From: Rhodanobacteraceae bacterium
GTDB lineage: Bacteria > Pseudomonadota > Gammaproteobacteria > Xanthomonadales > SZUA-5
Assembly (NCBI GenBank): GCA_016713135.1
Contig: JADJPR010000023.1
Location: 668,427 to 732,426, forward strand
Length of the DNA stretch: 64,000 nucleotides
Reading direction: 5' to 3'
Shown here: positions 3,086 through 46,043 of the stretch, one piece after another
How positions within the stretch are numbered: position 1 is the stretch's first letter
How the letters are laid out: the number at the start of each line of letters is the position of its first letter
The notes under the pieces: generated by a model
What the model saw: the letters and a program-made list of their open reading frames with translations, nothing else
Told to the model about the DNA's origin: nothing
The model's database searches: none
Translations under genes and position numbers: made by a program

Positions 3086-3191
3086 ATTCGCAGCGTCGTG
3101 CGCGCAGGCGTTGCATGGGATGATCGTGCCGGCGGCTTTGGCAGTGGCACAAGCGCCCGGCGTCGCATGGAGGTGGCTTTGTAACCGAAGC

Positions 3192-3461
3192 TCAAGGCCC
3201 CGCGTGCCCGGCGGGCTGGACCTCATCGCCGGTACGCGGAGGCTGTCCGCCCTCGCGCGCCATGATCGCGTCGAACCTGGCCAGATCTGCGCGGCTCTGT
3301 CGCTCCAGGAAAAACTGCTCGGCGGTCATGAAAGCCAGCTTTTCAGCCACGGCGGTCGCGACAAACTGGTTGGCGCTGGTGCCGTCCTGCTTGCTGACCC
3401 TTTCGACCGCGGCCTTGATCGAGCGTGGAAGACGCAAGGGAAAAGTTGAACTCGTTTTCAT
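3192..3461 (-). CDS. ribbon-helix-helix / HicB-like type II antitoxin (89 aa)
   Basis: ORF-track protein [45 protein letters not shown]... has the strand-helix-helix pattern of RHH antitoxins. It overlaps the upstream PIN gene by 4 nt (3458-3461). Confidence 0.6.
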
Positions 3462-4500: not shown

Positions 4501-4766
4501 GGCCGCAATCCGATGTGATGGCATATTGCGATGGTATGCGCTCAGATCCTGGGCGAGCAACCCGAGAAAGACGAAAATGGTCGATTCAGGAGCGCCTGAC
4601 TCGACCAAGACAGTCTGTTCGGCGCCCGTTGACCCTTCGACGGGCTCAGGGGATTAGCAGCGGAGCGACCTCCGCTACAGGAATGCGACAAGGACCATCA
4701 TGGACTGGTCGCGACGTGCGTGTCGCTCCTACAATGCGCGCCCTTTTTGTATCTCCTGCCGAGTCC

Positions 4767-6368
<1,602 letters not shown>

Positions 6369-7211
6369 GCGCATTTGTGGGTTCGAACTTTGTTCGAACG
6401 CTTCTGCCCCGGATGGCACGACCAGCCCTGAGCGTCCGGACAAGGTCCGGACCCACGGGGGCTCATCGCCGCGTTGCCCCGCGGATGTGAGGGCATTTGT
6501 GGGTTCGAACCTTGTTCGAACGCTTCTGCCTCGGATGGCGACCAGCCCGAAGCGTCCGGACAAGGTCCGGACCCACGAGGGCTCATCGCCGCGTCGCCCT
6601 CGCGGATGTGGGGGCATTTGTGGGTTCGAACCTTGTTCGAACGCTTCTGCCTCGGATGGCACGACCAGCCCTGAGCGTCCGGACAAGGTCCGGACCCACG
6701 AGGGCTCATCGCCGCTTCGCCCTCGCGGATGTGGGGCATTTGTGGGTTCGAACCTTGTTCGAACGCTTCTGCCTCGGATGGCACGACCAGCCCGAAGCGT
6801 CCGGACTAGGTCCGGACCCACGAGGGCTCATCGCCGCGTCGCCCTCGCGGATGTAGGCGCATTTGTGGGTTCGAACCTTGTTCGAACGCTTCTGCCTCGG
6901 ATGGCACGACCAGCCCTGAGCGTGCGGACAAGGTCCGGACCCTCGAGGGCTCATCGCCGCGTCGGCCTCGCGGATGTGGGGGCATTTGTGGGTTCGAACC
7001 TTGTTCGAACGCTTCTGCCTCGGATGGCACGACCAGCCCTGAGCGTGCGGACAAGGTCCGGACCCTCGAGGGCTCATCGCCGCGTCGCCCTCGCGGATGT
7101 GGGGCATTTGTGGGTTCGAACCTTGTTCGAACGCTTCGGCCTCGGATGGCACGACCAGCCCGAAGCGTCCGGACAAGGTCCGGACCCACGAGGGCTCATC
7201 GCCGCTTCGCG
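6369..7211. repeat. tandem array of 7 x ~122 bp filling the prfC/permease convergent intergenic region
   Basis: The unit marker GCATTTGTGGGTTCGAAC recurs at 6371, 6493, 6614, 6736, 6859, 6982 and 7104 (periods 121-123). Each unit holds three potential hairpins: GTTCGAAC-ctt-GTTCGAAC, GTCCGGAC-aag-GTCCGGAC and CGAGGGC-N13-GCCCTCG. Confidence 0.9.
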
Positions 7212-8482
7212 GCCGCATACATCAACGCACTGACCGCCAGCGCCACGCCGATCGCGATCCACTCCTGGGCACTCAGGGAGGCCAGGATGACGCCCATCGC
7301 GGCGACGCCGATCAGCGGAATCAGGGGCCCGCCCGGCAGATGCATCGGCTCCTCGTGGGTACGCGAGTCGACGCGCTGCAGGCGCCACGCGGCGAGGCAG
7401 ACGAACAGGTAGAGCAAGCCGACGGCACCACCCGACACCAGCGCCAGCGTCGCGAAATCGCCGGTCAGCGCCAACGCCAGCGCGACCGCGGCGTGCACGA
7501 TCACGGCAACGTGCGGTACGCGCGTGCGCGGATGCACCGCGCCCAGCGCTGCCGGCAGCAGGCCGTCCCGGCCCAGCGCGTACAGCAGCCGCGAGTTGCC
7601 GAGGATGTTGCCGTGCAGGTAGCCGAGCATCGACAGGCCGGCGCCGAGCAGCAACAGGGTGAAGCCGGGCGTCCACAGCGCGCCGGCGGTGCTGGCCAGC
7701 GGCGTCTTGTCGCCTGCCAGCGCAGCGCCGAGAACGCCCTGCGCCGACAGCTGCAGGCCGACATACAACAGGATCACGAATACGATGGCCACCAGCGCCG
7801 CGCGCGGCACGGTGCGGCCTGGATCGCGCACTTCGCCGGTCGGCACCAGCGCGCTCTCCATCCCGGCGTAGGCAAACAGCACCAGCACCATCGCCTGGCC
7901 CCAGTGCTGCCACGCCGGCCATGCGGGCACCGTGAGCTGCGCCGGCTCGATGAACCAGATGCCGAGCAGGACCAGCAGCACCAGCGGGGTGAGTTTGGCA
8001 GCGGCCAGCACTCCAATCGCGCGCGCGCCGAGGCTCACGCCGCGCAGGTTGAGCGTCGCGAACAGCCCGAACAGCAGCACCAGCAGCAGCGCCCGCGCGC
8101 CGCCCTCGCCCGCCGCCGGCCAGACACGCGCGGATTGGTCGACCAGCGCTGCGGCGACGCCCGCGCAACCGGTGACATTCGAGATCCAGGTCAGCGCGCC
8201 GAAAGAGAATCCGGCGAAGGGCCCGAAGGCATCACGACCATAGCTGTAAGGGCCGCCGGTGGCGGTCGCACGGCTGCCGGCGGCGGCGAAACACAGGACC
8301 ACCGGCACCATCAACAGAGCGCCAAGCACGAATGCGTACGGCGCCGCGGGGCCCAGGGTATCCGCCAGGCGCCCCGGCAGCGCGAAGATGCCGCCGCCGA
8401 CAATGATGTTGACGATGGCCGCCGCCAGCAGGGTGGTGCCGAAGGCGCGGACCAGGAGTTGTTCGCTGGCGGTTTGGGTCAT
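7196..8482 (-). CDS. APC-family amino acid permease (428 aa)
   Basis: MTQTASEQLLVRAFGTTLLAAAIVNIIVGGGIFALPG... is polytopic and hydrophobic throughout. The ATG at the complement of 8480-8482 was chosen inside ORF 7196-8566. The last codons (KRR-stop) lie in the terminal repeat unit. Confidence 0.85.
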   Translation of the reverse strand: MTQTASEQLLVRAFGTTLLAAAIVNIIVGGGIFALPGRLADTLGPAAPYAFVLGALLMVPVVLCFAAAGSRATATGGPYSYGRDAFGPFAGFSFGALTWISNVTGCAGVAAALVDQSARVWPAAGEGGARALLLVLLFGLFATLNLRGVSLGARAIGVLAAAKLTPLVLLVLLGIWFIEPAQLTVPAWPAWQHWGQAMVLVLFAYAGMESALVPTGEVRDPGRTVPRAALVAIVFVILLYVGLQLSAQGVLGAALAGDKTPLASTAGALWTPGFTLLLLGAGLSMLGYLHGNILGNSRLLYALGRDGLLPAALGAVHPRTRVPHVAVIVHAAVALALALTGDFATLALVSGGAVGLLYLFVCLAAWRLQRVDSRTHEEPMHLPGGPLIPLIGVAAMGVILASLSAQEWIAIGVALAVSALMYAAAKRR

Positions 8483-10991: not shown

Positions 10992-12716
10992 ATGGCCACC
11001 CTGCTGCTGACCTACCTGGTCGCGATCGCCGCCGCGCTGCCGCTCGGCTGGTGGCTGGCGCGCACACTGATGACCGCGCCGATGCCCGGCGAGGCGCTGT
11101 TCGCAGCCATCGAGAAACCGCTCTGGCGCGCGCTCGGCATCGATCCTGCCCGCGGCATGAGCTGGCAGGGCTACGCCCGTGCCTTCCTGCTCAGCAATGC
11201 GGTACTCGGCATCGCGGTGTTCGCGCTGCTGCTGGCGCAGGGCTCGCTGCCGCTGAATCCGGATGGCATTCCCGGCATGTCCTGGGACCTGGCCTTGCAC
11301 ACGATGGTCAGTTTCCTGACCAACACCAACCAGCAGCACTACTCCGGCCAGGCGCAGCTGTCCTACCTGTTGCAACTGGCCGGCATCGTCACGCTGCAGG
11401 TGGTGACTCCGATGATGGGCCTGGCCATCGCCGCGGCGATGCTGCGCGCGCTGACCGGCGGCCGCAACGCCGCCAGCGCGAAGGAGGGCGAGCCGCGCGA
11501 TGTCGGCAACTTCTACGTCGACGTGGTGCGCCTGACCCTGCGCGCCTTCCTGCCGGTCGCACTGGCACTGTCGCTGGCACTGTCCTGGCAGGGCGTGCCG
11601 AGCACTTTCGAGGGCGCCGCGAAGGCCACCCCGGTGGACGCCAGTGCCGGCCTGGGCGAGCAGTTGATCCCGGTTGGCCCGGTCGCACCGATGGTCGCGG
11701 TCAAGCAGCTCGGCACCAACGGCGGCGGCTGGTACGGGCCGAACTCTTCGGTGCCGCTGGAGAACCCGACACCCTTGTCGAACCTGCTGCAGACCGTCGC
11801 GATCATCGTGTTCCCGATCGCGATCGCCCTGATGATCGGCCCGCTGACTGGGCGTCGGCGGCTGGCCGCGATGGTCTTCGGCAGCATGCTGCTGATGTCG
11901 CTCGCGCTCGCGGGCGCTGCGCTGTGGCTGGAGCAGGCGCCGAATGCCGCCGCCAGCGGACTTGCGGCCGCGACACCCAACCTCGAGGGCAAGGAGGTGC
12001 GCTTCGGTGCCGATGCCTCGGCGCTGTGGGCGACCCTGACCACCCAGACCTCGAACGGCTCGGTCAATGCGATGCACGACTCGCTGAACCCGCTGACCGG
12101 CGTGATCACGCTGTCCGGCATGCTGGTCAACGCGGTCTGGGGCGGCGTCGGCTGCGGTCTGGTCAATTTCCTGGTCTACGTGTTGCTGGCGGTGTTCCTG
12201 TCCGGGCTGATGATCGGGCGCACGCCGGAGCTGTTCGGGCGCAAGCTCGAGGTTCCGGAGATCCGCCTGCTCTCGCTGGTGGTGATGCTGCAACCGCTGC
12301 TGGTGCTCGGCCTGACCGCGTACACGCTGGCGACGCCGGCGATCACCGGCAACAGCAACCCCGGCTTCCACGGCATCTCGCAGGTCTTCTACGAGTACAC
12401 CTCGGCCTTCGCCAACAACGGCTCCGGCTTCGAGGGCCTCGGCGACGCCACGGTCTGGTGGAACCTCTCCTGCGTGCTCGCATTGCTGGTCGGGCGCTAC
12501 GCCTGCCTGCTAATTCCCCTCGCGATCGCCGGTTCGCTGGCGGTCAAGCGCGTCGCGCCGACCACGCGCGCCTCGTTGAATGTCGAAGGCCCGGTGTTCG
12601 CCGCCACCCTGATCGCGGTGATCGTACTCATGACCCTGTTGTGCTTCCTGCCGGTGCTGGCGCTCGGGCCGATCGCCGAGCACCTCTCGCTGGCCGCCAC
12701 GGGAGCCATTCAATGA
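10992..12716 (+). CDS. kdpA: K+-transporting ATPase subunit A (574 aa)
   Basis: ORF-track protein [26 protein letters not shown]..., a polytopic KdpA-like sequence. ATGA overlap with kdpB. Confidence 0.95.
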
Positions 12717-23786: not shown

Positions 23787-23954
23787 TGGTTGTGGGTTGT
23801 GGGTTGTGGGTTGTGGGTTGTGGGTTGTGGGTTCTGGGTTCTGGGTTGTGGGTTCTGGGTTGTGGGTTCTGGGTTGTGGGCAGAAAAGCCGGCCGCCGAC
23901 TGCATTCGCTTCGGCCTTTGCCGCCCACAACCCAGAACTCACAACCCCAGAACC
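23787..23954. repeat. oligomer-armed hairpin element (GGGTTGT/GGGTTCT heptamers vs ACAACCC/AGAACCC)
   Basis: The left arm has ~13 heptamers (23787-23881). The loop is AGAAAAGCCGGCCGCCGACTGCATTCGCTTCGGCCTTTGCC. The right arm (23923-23954) has only ~4 heptamers. The element ends 5 nt from the stop of the GGDEF-EAL gene. Confidence 0.85.
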
Positions 23955-29760: not shown

Positions 29761-29858
29761 GAGGGCACGAGGGCATGAGGGCACGAGGGCACGTGAAAGC
29801 CGGCGCTCGCACTGGGCGGCTCTTGCGTGCCCTCGTGCCCTCGTGCCCTCGTGCCCTC
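29761..29858. repeat. oligomer-armed hairpin element (GAGGGCAC x4 / GTGCCCTC x4) between phoP and phoQ
   Basis: 32-nt arms at 29761-29792 and 29827-29858 are complementary with one mismatch, around a 34-nt loop. The loop is the reverse complement of the loops of the GAGGGCAC hairpins at 33249-33920. Confidence 0.9.
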
Positions 29859-45188: not shown

Positions 45189-46043
45189 ATGGCGCCGGGC
45201 ATCGCGCAGCGTGATCGACGCGCTCCGGGTTGCGCTGATGCACGCGCTGCAGGGTTGTGGGTTGTGGGTTGTGGGTTGTGGGCAGCGCGACCGGCGCGAG
45301 ATCCCGGGCGCAGGGCAACTTGGCTGGCCGCCATCTTCGCACTCGCCAGTGCCCTTGCTCCTGCCTTTGCTGCCCAGAACCCAGAACCCACAACCCAGAA
45401 CCCGCTTATCGCTGCCCACAACCCACAATCCACAACCCAGAACCCGCATATCGCTGCCCAGAACCCACAACCCACAACCCAGAACCCGCTGACCGCTGCC
45501 ACGGACCTCCTCACCACCATCGCCGCCCGCATCCAGCCCGCCGCGGTGCTGCGCGGCGAGTTCGTGCAGGAGCGCACGCTGGTGGGCTTCGCCAAACCGC
45601 TGCGCTCCACCGGGCGCTTCGTGGCGGCGCGCGGGCGCGGGGTGCTGTGGATCACGCAATCGCCGTTTCCGGGAGAACTGGTGATCACCGAGGGCGCGAT
45701 CCGCGAGCGGGTGGACGGCAGCGAGAGCGTGGTCGTCGATGCCAGCCGGGAACCTGCGCTGCAGCAAATCAATCGCGTGCTGCTGGCGCTGCTGCAGGGC
45801 GATCTCGCCACCCTGCGCGAGCAGTTCAGCGTGGCTGGCCAGGACGATTCCCAAGGTTGGGCGCTGACGCTGACGCCGCAGCCGCCGTTGAGCGAGGCCA
45901 TCGGCCTGGTCGAACTGGCCGGAAACAGCCAGGTCGAAGTGGTCAGCATCCGTGAGCACAACGGCGATCTCAGCCGGGTCGAGTTCCATGCGCTGTCCGG
46001 CGGCGACGCGCTGACCGCCGACGAAGCGGCGCGCCTTGACTGA
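45189..46043 (+). CDS. LolA-like outer-membrane lipoprotein-carrier family protein; its N-terminus is read through a hairpin repeat element (284 aa if the ATG at 45189 is used)
   Basis: The conserved body is DLLTTIAARIQPAAVLRGEFVQERTLVGFAKPLRSTGRFVAARGRGVLWITQSPF... The only upstream in-frame ATG is 45189. The signal-like stretch RRATWLAAIFALASALAPAFAA lies in the loop of the repeat element. Confidence 0.65.
   Translation: MAPGIAQRDRRAPGCADARAAGLWVVGCGLWAARPARDPGRRATWLAAIFALASALAPAFAAQNPEPTTQNPLIAAHNPQSTTQNPHIAAQNPQPTTQNPLTAATDLLTTIAARIQPAAVLRGEFVQERTLVGFAKPLRSTGRFVAARGRGVLWITQSPFPGELVITEGAIRERVDGSESVVVDASREPALQQINRVLLALLQGDLATLREQFSVAGQDDSQGWALTLTPQPPLSEAIGLVELAGNSQVEVVSIREHNGDLSRVEFHALSGGDALTADEAARLD
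45252..45494. repeat. oligomer-armed hairpin element (GGGTTGT heptamers; right arm = 3 x 42 nt) inside the LolA-like reading frame
   Basis: Left arm: GGGTTGT x4 (45252-45283). Right arm 45369-45494 = GCTGCCCAGAACCCAGAACCCACAACCCAGAACCCGCTTATC and two variants. Related to 23787-23954. Confidence 0.85.

Follow-up and report, generated by a model that had tools for sequence, protein, structure and literature searches.

A probable BIME-type cluster of seven tandem inverted REP pairs between prfC and an amino-acid permease gene in a Rhodanobacteraceae bacterium

REPs are selfish intergenic repeats familiar from Escherichia coli, Pseudomonas, and Stenotrophomonas, and a genome usually holds more than 100 dispersed, mostly extragenic copies. 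Their mechanistic hallmark is the association with a cognate RAYT, a Y1 HUH transposase flanked by two inverted REPs, which is usually single copy per genome and needs the whole genome to be found. Rolling-circle amplification of modules by RAYT has been proposed and, to our knowledge, never demonstrated. REPs are defined by a GT(A/G)G head and a GC-rich palindrome, and BIMEs by regularly spaced, alternating REPs in tandem basic modules (PMC2817692). GTGG heads have been published for Pflu1, Pflu2, Smal3, and S_sp2, and the 3' ends of genes can be captured in inter-REP segments (PMC2817692). Large clusters consist of dimers reiterated with flanking DNA, include heterodimers with different stems, and have REP termini that often give stop codons (PMC3733652). 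In E. coli, some 60% of the REPs sit between convergent genes, a position that correlates with higher expression of both genes, and REP325, which comprises 12 hairpins (six Y/Z2 pairs), is a partly Rho-dependent terminator and a stabilizer of the upstream mRNA (bioRxiv 10.64898/2026.03.23.713779).

The 64-kb window (the whole stretch of DNA analyzed here) contains a tandem array between the convergent genes for peptide chain release factor 3 (prfC) and an APC-family amino-acid permease. We put the probability that this array is a BIME-type cluster, built from a REP family of Lysobacterales (Rhodanobacteraceae-like), at roughly 0.8. The closest published look-alikes are the REPs and BIMEs of Stenotrophomonas (Smal3/S_sp2) and, in organization, BIME-2/REP325 of E. 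coli.

TRF delimited a single array at 6362-7210 with a period of 123 (also 245 and 368), 6.9 copies, and 94% matches, bearing out the seven tandem ~122-bp units described in the first-pass annotation. The units align in register, and the end of the last one was placed at ~7216 by extending the homology through comparison with L169/L134, two loci of relatives described below. Any two units differ at 3 to 16 positions, the edge units at 9 to 16 and the central units at 3 to 6, with unit 1 being the most diverged. All follow the same order: a copy of the prfC end, 8 nt, a Y REP, a 28-nt segment, an inverted Z REP, 6 nt, and a copy of the permease 3' end (Table 1). The two doubled palindromes noticed earlier, GTTCGAAC-NTT-GTTCGAAC and GTCCGGAC-NAG-GTCCGGAC, each occur seven times in the array (~0 expected by chance) and nowhere else in the 64-kb window, and the two unit variants are likewise present, CCCTGAGCGT in four units (1, 3, 5, and 6) and CCCGAAGCGT in three (2, 4, and 7). 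The motif CGAGGGC-N13-GCCCTCG, which had been ascribed to each unit, is exact in only four of the seven (units 2, 3, 4, and 6); it is present as a variant in units 1 and 5 and is missing from unit 7. Two statements in the first-pass annotation needed correction. The array was said to start 1 nt after the prfC stop, but its start at 6362 lies 7 nt within prfC, and the prfC stop TAG is also repeat sequence. All six reading frames were said to be open, but only one plus-strand frame is free of stops across 6369-7195, and the other five contain 1 to 4 stops. The ORFs crossing the array had no Pfam match above curated cut-offs, and the long ORFs at 6328-7233 and 4698-6821 are not genes.

Table 1. 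Coordinates of the array, its units, and the flanking genes. Unit starts and lengths are from the unit alignment; Y REPs lie on the plus strand and Z REPs on the minus strand.
Feature	Coordinates	Strand	Y REP (+)	Z REP (-)	Permease-end copy	Remarks and basis
prfC (peptide chain release factor 3)	4767..6368	+				533 aa; translation, RF3 Pfam domains
Probable BIME-type array	6362..7216	.				7 tandem units, 121-123 nt; TRF, unit alignment, folding
Unit 1	6362..6483		6377-6402 (loop TTT)	6431-6456	6463-6483	
Unit 2	6484..6604		6499-6524	6551-6576	from 6583	GAAGC variant
Unit 3	6605..6727		6620-6645	6674-6699	from 6706	TGAGC variant
Unit 4	6728..6849		6742-6767	6796-6821 (loop CTA)	from 6828	
Unit 5	6850..6972		6865-6890	6919-6944 (degenerate; GTGCGGAC, CCCTC head)		begins GATGTAGGCGCATTT
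Unit 6	6973..7095		6988-7013	7042-7067 (degenerate)		
Unit 7	7096..7216		7110-7135	7164-7189		permease-end segment is the genuine permease 3' end
APC-family amino-acid permease	7196..8482	-				428 aa from MTQTAS; AA_permease_2 domain

The REP element is 26 nt long: the head GTGG is followed by a stem of 8 bp closed by the loop CTT, and the tail is GCT. The Y type, on the plus strand, reads GTGG-GTTCGAAC-CTT-GTTCGAAC-GCT (TTCGAA stem), and the Z type, on the minus strand, reads GTGG-GTCCGGAC-CTT-GTCCGGAC-GCT (TCCGGA stem). Seven Y and seven Z elements alternate strictly between the strands, with none elsewhere in the window, and the GTGG head is present on all 12 of the 12 intact elements. The tails of a Y/Z pair are 28 nt apart and the heads of neighboring pairs 42 nt apart; from one 8-bp half-site to the next it is 11 bp, roughly a single turn of the helix. 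The array thus combines GC-rich, imperfect palindromes that form stem-loops and lie in the 20- to 40-nt size range of REPs, a GT(A/G)G head on their 5' side (PMC2817692), and regularly spaced alternating REPs in tandem modules. Because the 14 REPs alternate strictly, it conforms to the published definition of a BIME. The unit, which the first reading did not recognize, can be recognized as an inverted pair of GT(A/G)G-headed REP hairpins in a BIME-type cluster.

Base pairing also joins the Y arm to the Z arm, and on either strand the fold of lowest energy is one ~85-nt hairpin. An earlier count of three hairpins per unit is therefore right in that separate palindromes are present, and incomplete in that the two doubled ones co-fold. 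With its heads facing outward, the Y/Z doublet is REPIN-like and is predicted to be able to fold either as two small hairpins or as the single ~85-nt one. The inverted repeat of unit 7 (I3) has 33-nt arms that are 85% complementary. Folding of the whole array is much more stable than that of shuffled sequence, with z = -11 and -15 for the two strands.

The E. coli BIME-2 and atypical BIMEs (REP325) resemble the array in the alternation of Y and Z variants, in the two fixed linker types, and in their tandem arrangement; they also occupy the 3' regions of genes, preferentially between convergent genes, and form a transcribed hairpin stack with no U-tract. They share no sequence similarity with it, however. 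In the array, the head is GTGG instead of GTAG, the stem has eight matched base pairs and a loop of 3 nt where theirs is longer and mismatched, the linkers include copies of both gene ends, and the hairpins number 14. The Stenotrophomonas Smal3/S_sp2 elements (Nunvar et al. 2010, PMC2817692) come from the same bacterial order and have the head G-GTGG-G followed by an 8-bp stem and a short loop with CCTTG or CCGTTG (compare GGTGGGTGCCAACCTTGGTTGGCAC with GTGGGTCCGGACCTTGTCCGGAC). Their modules are also arranged head to tail, their modified REPs keep palindromy, and hybrid two-REP BIMEs exist among them. In contrast to the present family, they flank identified rayt genes, and their stems differ, with about half of the stem positions identical as judged by eye only.

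Two further systems are similar in part. In the REPINs of Pseudomonas fluorescens SBW25, two REPs in inverted orientation, their GTGG heads facing outward, flank a short spacer and form one long hairpin; many copies are dispersed, with singlets as remnants. Here, most doublets are instead heterodimers or Z/Z homodimers, the spacer being 10 to 29 nt, and in the window the doublet is tandemly amplified, not dispersed. Clusters of GTAG-type REPs (Di Nocera et al. 2013, PMC3733652) share HH/TT dimers, heterodimers with different stems, reiteration of dimers with flanking DNA, and termini that give stop codons to flanking ORFs. The tag is GTGG in the present case and, to judge from text searches, that catalogue does not include the Y/Z family.

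The prfC and permease genes converge on the array, as had been annotated. The prfC product is 92% identical to its best database relative (P0001); an exact look-up found no identical protein on record, so that the collection does not contain the source genome. The permease is 92 to 87% identical to P0121-P0125, with C-terminal tails that vary among relatives. The prfC C-terminus, AQPVEM*, and the DNA that encodes it, GTGGAGATGTAG, are common to relatives without the repeat and are therefore native; the last 7 nt of the gene, GATGTAG (6362-6368), are also the first 7 nt of the repeat unit. At the opposite edge, the last permease codons and stop (complement of 7196-7210) are sequence common to the other units, in agreement with the first-pass annotation. 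The stop itself, TGA, is the complement of 7196-7198, at a distance of 6 nt to the last Z REP's head.

The informative loci for the same site in relatives came from permease homologues. Synteny anchored on prfC yielded, for the nearest relatives (P0001, P0004, and the Tahibacter P0013), other downstream genes and no Y/Z arms. The locus L130, from a Rhodanobacteraceae MAG (permease identity, 90%), shows the convergent pair with its two stops just 15 nt apart and represents an empty site. At this place L132 (permease 92% identical) has a REP of another kind, GTAG-headed, in two tandem units of ~110 nt. L134/L169 (87%) carry one Z REP and share with the window the 21-nt segment CCTCGGATGGCACGACCAGCC and the ...CGATGA stop; before these come three tandem copies of another GTGG-headed REP. 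No Z REP is present in L133 (87%), where the permease reading frame runs on for one more codon, to a TAG stop. The states of the site range from a 15-nt spacer to seven modules, and the repeats at this one site vary among relatives in presence, size, and composition, as expected of BIMEs. The different contents of L130, L132, L133, L134/L169, and the window make the prfC/permease spacer a hot spot whose repeat content differs by lineage, as described for BIMEs. Since L133, which lacks the Z REP, stops one codon later and the single-Z L134/L169 stop at the same TGA, the TCA/TGA stop beside the Z REP probably arrived with the element in an ancestor. The earlier claim that the repeat supplies the permease stop has to be reversed in part, however, since the units for their part contain copies of both gene ends, the whole spacer having been duplicated in place.

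These copies bear on how the array arose. The sequence GATGT(A/G), which opens every unit, duplicates the native end of prfC, and the GATGTAGGCGCATTT at 6850 that opens unit 5 is exactly the prfC end plus its downstream 8 nt. Every internal unit holds TCATCGCCGCGTCGCCC(T/C)CGC, and TCATCGCCGCGTCGCCC is closer to the permease 3' end of L169/L134 (TCATCGCCGCGTCGCCCCCGC) than to the window's own (TCATCGCCGCTTCGCGGCCGC). The duplicated segment thus had one end 7 nt within prfC and the other ~21 nt within the permease gene. Because the units carry both gene ends, the array grew by in-place tandem duplication of the entire spacer, yielding seven copies of the whole ancestral spacer and not seven insertions.

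We infer the following order of events and mechanism of amplification. A doublet, or first a single Z REP, would have landed in a very short prfC/permease spacer, replacing the last one or two permease codons and giving the gene its TGA. Head-to-tail duplication would then have raised the whole spacer to seven copies, each including 7 nt from the end of prfC and ~21 nt from that of the permease gene, by slippage during replication, by unequal recombination, or by amplification of modules through a RAYT as has been proposed for BIMEs. Homogenization of the central units and divergence of the edge units would have come last; that edge units are the most diverged is expected from unequal exchange.

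The cluster is most likely a non-autonomous selfish or neutral element, with hairpin effects in the 3' untranslated regions (3'-UTRs) of both mRNAs as likely side effects. By analogy with E. coli, from which these effects on expression are carried over, an array transcribed as the 3'-UTR of either gene would present a hairpin stack that blocks 3'-5' exonucleases. The stack would also impede read-through into the opposing gene, in a partly Rho-dependent manner and with no U-tract. The first hairpin is 8 nt from the nearest stop codon and the last hairpin 6 nt, and hairpins this close to both stops may interfere with translation termination. Liang, Rudd, and Deutscher reportedly found in 2015 that terminating ribosomes can be stalled by a REP that is no more than ~15 nt away from a stop codon.

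If such effects were the reason for its maintenance, the array would be kept by selection as a bidirectional transcription stop or mRNA-stabilizing stack for prfC and the permease gene and would not be merely selfish. The short distances to the two stop codons and the very strong folding on both strands fit this explanation, as do the higher expression of convergent genes separated by E. coli REPs and the terminating and stabilizing activity of REP325. A single hairpin would do, however, which leaves seven copies unaccounted for, and the U-tract of a terminator is missing. In addition, the site in close relatives is a mere 15-nt spacer in L130 and holds very different repeats in L132, L133, and L169, so no particular structure is conserved there. 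Because relatives do without the array, we consider a selected, locus-specific function unlikely.

Between 6000 and 7600, no sigma-70-like promoter was found, and neither strand contained an intrinsic terminator (hairpin plus U-tract; 0 sites), the sequence after each hairpin being GC-rich. Rfam 15, which the first-pass annotation had named as a place to look, was searched permissively over 5800-7800 and at gathering score over the window, and no family reached gathering score. The sub-threshold matches were to eukaryotic miRNA precursors only; such matches are typical of long hairpins. A tRNA/tmRNA scan found nothing. An intrinsic terminator, an Rfam family, and a tRNA-derived repeat were each rejected as identities of the unit on these results, and a CRISPR array was rejected because the inter-REP segments are themselves repeated in every unit. 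The roles first suggested for the array (bidirectional terminator or stabilizer, sRNAs, and protein-binding platform) are the same as those discussed for REPs in the literature, but the canonical terminator and promoter are missing, and nothing pointed to an sRNA gene.

Arrays of 122-nt tandem repeats are difficult to reconstruct from short-read data, and the copy number, or the array itself, could in principle be an assembly artefact. The internal junction between units had 0 matches in the metagenome scan and occurs in no metagenome contig or independent assembly found. We nevertheless regard an artefact as quite unlikely. The units are not identical, differing at 3 to 16 positions, which argues against a trivial assembly duplication; they also carry unit-specific variants and are most diverged at the edges, as in a real array. 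Both outer junctions run on into native gene ends, and relatives carry REPs at the same site.

Further evidence that the array belongs to a REP family comes from other genomes and metagenomes, for which the scans provide the matches listed or exact matches only. Genomes, one per species, were scanned with the 19-mer of the Y hairpin. Among the matches listed, those that extend past the 19-mer were from Lysobacterales MAGs only (labelled Xanthomonas sp., Rhodanobacteraceae, and Lysobacterales). In these MAGs the copies are dispersed as lone arms or as doublets of the Y-loop-Z or Z-spacer-Y form, in which Y is consistently accompanied by an arm of the TCCGGA type. Other users of the 19-mer, namely an alphaproteobacterial ~66-nt unit beside tRNA genes, Prochlorococcus, Flavobacterium, and a Burkholderia coding repeat, are unrelated; they were rejected as relatives because nothing matches beyond the 19-mer. 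A separate metagenome scan with the Z arm returned at least 36 contigs, many from the same samples. With a Y/R-degenerate consensus, at least 92 instances were collected outside the window in at least 49 loci, with up to ~14 contigs in one metagenome sample and at least 5 loci in one MAG. The dimers among these instances comprise 18 head-out (gaps of 10 to 29 nt), 20 tail-to-tail, and 1 head-to-tail. Two units compared with a plasmid collection by distant blastn gave no match, and searches for the arm sequences as strings in the literature found no relevant paper. The class of element is already known, and the particular Y/Z sequences were not found in the literature searched or in plasmid records.

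The stems of the family occur in four variants (TTCGAA/TTCGAA, TCCGGA/TCCGGA, TTTGGA/TCCAAA, and TCCAGA/TCTGGA), all of them 8/8 paired, and full 8/8 stem pairing is found in 83 of 106 instances. Among 45 distinct sequences, 93.6% of the cells are paired, double changes occur in 4 of 8 pairs, and 0 of 500 shuffles reach the observed score; the set was gathered with the Y/R-degenerate consensus and contains few subfamilies, such that the compensatory changes represent few independent events. Positions G1, G3, and G4 of the head are each conserved in at least 90% of the same 45 sequences. The W and V variants keep the hairpin and lose the palindromy within each arm; therefore, the conserved feature is the hairpin and not the restriction-site-like palindromes. 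On the same grounds, each 8-mer palindrome (TTCGAA or TCCGGA) was rejected as a protein half-site. This result weighs on the explanation that the array is a DNA-level platform for gyrase, IHF, or HU that relieves supercoiling between the convergent genes. The regular spacing of the REPs, with half-sites 11 bp apart, is consistent with a platform, and BIME-2 binds gyrase and BIME-1 binds IHF (PMC2817692). However, the loss of 8-mer palindromy in W and V argues against a dimeric protein reading each 8-mer, and no role of REP325 in chromosome compaction was found (bioRxiv 10.64898/2026.03.23.713779), which makes this explanation very unlikely.

A search for the cognate transposase with an E. coli TnpA-REP probe (verified against PDB 4ER8; tblastn and phmmer) gave no RAYT match in the window or in the 170 fetched loci. 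In a Pfam scan of the window ORFs, Y1_Tnp was not among the 25 families listed of 56 matched. The ORFs located between REP pairs in L003 and L031 are a long alpha-amylase-like ORF and a protein whose C-terminal domain appears, by eye, to be of the cold-shock type, and not transposases. A derivation of the unit from a MITE, in which a deleted insertion sequence would have contributed its terminal inverted repeats as the Y/Z arms and the unit would have been mobilized by a DDE transposase and tandemly amplified, would suit the 27- to 33-nt imperfect inverted arms around a short variable core but is highly improbable given that the arms are found alone, in both orders (head-out as well as tail-to-tail), and in Z/Z, Y/Z, W/Z, and V/Z combinations, that each arm is itself a hairpin kept by compensatory changes, that the GTGG head is typical of REPs, that no target-site duplications are evident at the flanks of dimers, and that no transposase gene next to any copy and no related insertion sequence were found.

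Reading the locus as a BIME-type cluster avoids a mis-annotation, as the array is neither a new RNA nor a defence system and the ORFs that cross it are not genes. It opens no new biological question. The array could be a natural record of BIME growth, in which the amplified segment extends beyond the doublet and is anchored outside the REPs, and might offer a possible handle on BIME formation or a copy-number-dependent dial on prfC, a prospect that we consider unlikely. If the source genome were without a RAYT, or if the Y/Z heterodimer were amplified by a RAYT at the outer GTGG heads, the locus would be a direct handle on the mechanism of BIME formation, and a stack of 14 hairpins 6 to 8 nt from the stop of the gene for an essential translation factor could tune prfC expression by copy number. 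For uncultured Rhodanobacteraceae-like bacteria, the analysis defines a REP family, GTGG-GTYYRRAC-CTT-GTYYRRAC-GCT, that is of use in annotation and strain typing. With an empty site and intermediate states in relatives, the locus is a clean example of a REP doublet amplified in situ together with both gene ends and, as such, bears on the origin of BIMEs.

At the position occupied in the window by the Y/Z array, the tandem units carrying the 26-nt, GTGG-headed REP types Y and Z, the relative L132 bears classical GTAG-headed REP units (GTAG-CCCGGGGTACGC...GCGTTCCCCGGG). A second GTGG-headed class, of the Pseudomonas/Xanthomonas-like GA-containing type, is present in L169 and L133, two further relatives with the prfC/permease pair, and in L169 forms three ~42-nt tandem copies adjoining a single Z REP. 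The coordinates of these and other features are collected in the table.

Repeat, REP and gene features in the window and in loci of other genomes or metagenomes (L-numbers)
Feature	Location	Remarks
Intergenic tandem-repeat block	window 33003-33968	~960 bp, 4-5 modules; TRF
GGTGTTGG / CCAACACC runs	window 32990-33010 and 34000-34110	flank the 33-kb repeat block on both sides
Solitary hairpin: (GAGGGCAC)x4, ~30-nt loop, (GTGCCCTC)x4	window 29761-29858	directly downstream of gene end
(GGTTGTG)x13	window 23788-23880	
(GGGTTGT)x4	window 45252-45282	
CCCAGAA/CCCACAA, three 42-nt units	window 45369-45500	
Classical GTAG-headed REP, two tandem ~110-nt units	L132 1740-1960	prfC-permease spacer
Second GTGG-headed REP class	L169 1-130; L133 ~3130-3160	reverse complement GTGGGAGCGGGTTCACCCCGCGAGC
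Two adjacent paralogous genes	L031 5065-5913; 6159-7289	each between Y/Z REP doublets

Periods of 198 and 378 were assigned by TRF to the repeat block at 33 kb of the window, in which every module opens with a conserved ~55-nt head (TGTTCGGTGAGAGTCCCGGTCGCCCCTGGCGGTGCGCTTATTCGCGCATCGAAC), continues as a long hairpin built of inverted arrays of short units, and is closed by the tail TTTACCTTTTCTAAATCAATGCCTTGCGACA. The hairpins are of two alternating kinds, the GCAAAGGAC/GCAAAGAAC type versus (GAGGGCAC)x4...(GTGCCCTC)x4, and the GCAAAGG-type hairpin of the block is present also in the relatives L133 (~3200-3290) and L126 (~12080-12200). Inverted heptamer/octamer arrays resembling the solitary hairpin of the window adjoin REP doublets in relatives, for example in L142, where the doublet is flanked by (GGCACGG)n ... 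(CCGTGCC)n, and in L008, L135, L140, and L154. Reiterated heptamers that are rich in G and T, or complementary to such sequence, make up the (GGTTGTG)x13, (GGGTTGT)x4, CCCAGAA/CCCACAA, and GGTGTTGG / CCAACACC entries of the table; some of these window runs may lie inside coding sequence.

The 19-mer used for the genome scan, the perfect Y-type hairpin GTTCGAAC-TTT-GTTCGAAC, is in Alphaproteobacteria part of an unrelated, often tandem ~66-nt unit (among the matches listed, L001, L004, L006, L013, L022, L024, L030, L073, L075, L085, L087, L093, and others). By eye, this unit adjoins apparent tRNA gene ends and includes a copy of an apparent tRNA 3′ acceptor end (TGGCGCGCCC). Both strands of the 19-mer contain GTTC-N7-GTTC, the motif of the alphaproteobacterial LexA box. 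Single-cell genomes of Prochlorococcus carry GTTCGAACCTTGTTCGAAC followed by TTTT, recurrently 3′ of a conserved GGATTAGAAGGAATCC-like segment; the loci with GTTCGAACCTTGTTCGAAC among the matches listed are L021, L028, L033, L038, L042, L045, L046, L091, and L104. GTTCGAACCTTGTTCGAAC-TTTT looks like a repeated terminator-like element.

Both products of the paralogous genes bracketed by REP doublets in L031 have, by eye, a long acidic N-terminal region, and their C-terminal segment resembles a cold-shock domain on visual inspection.
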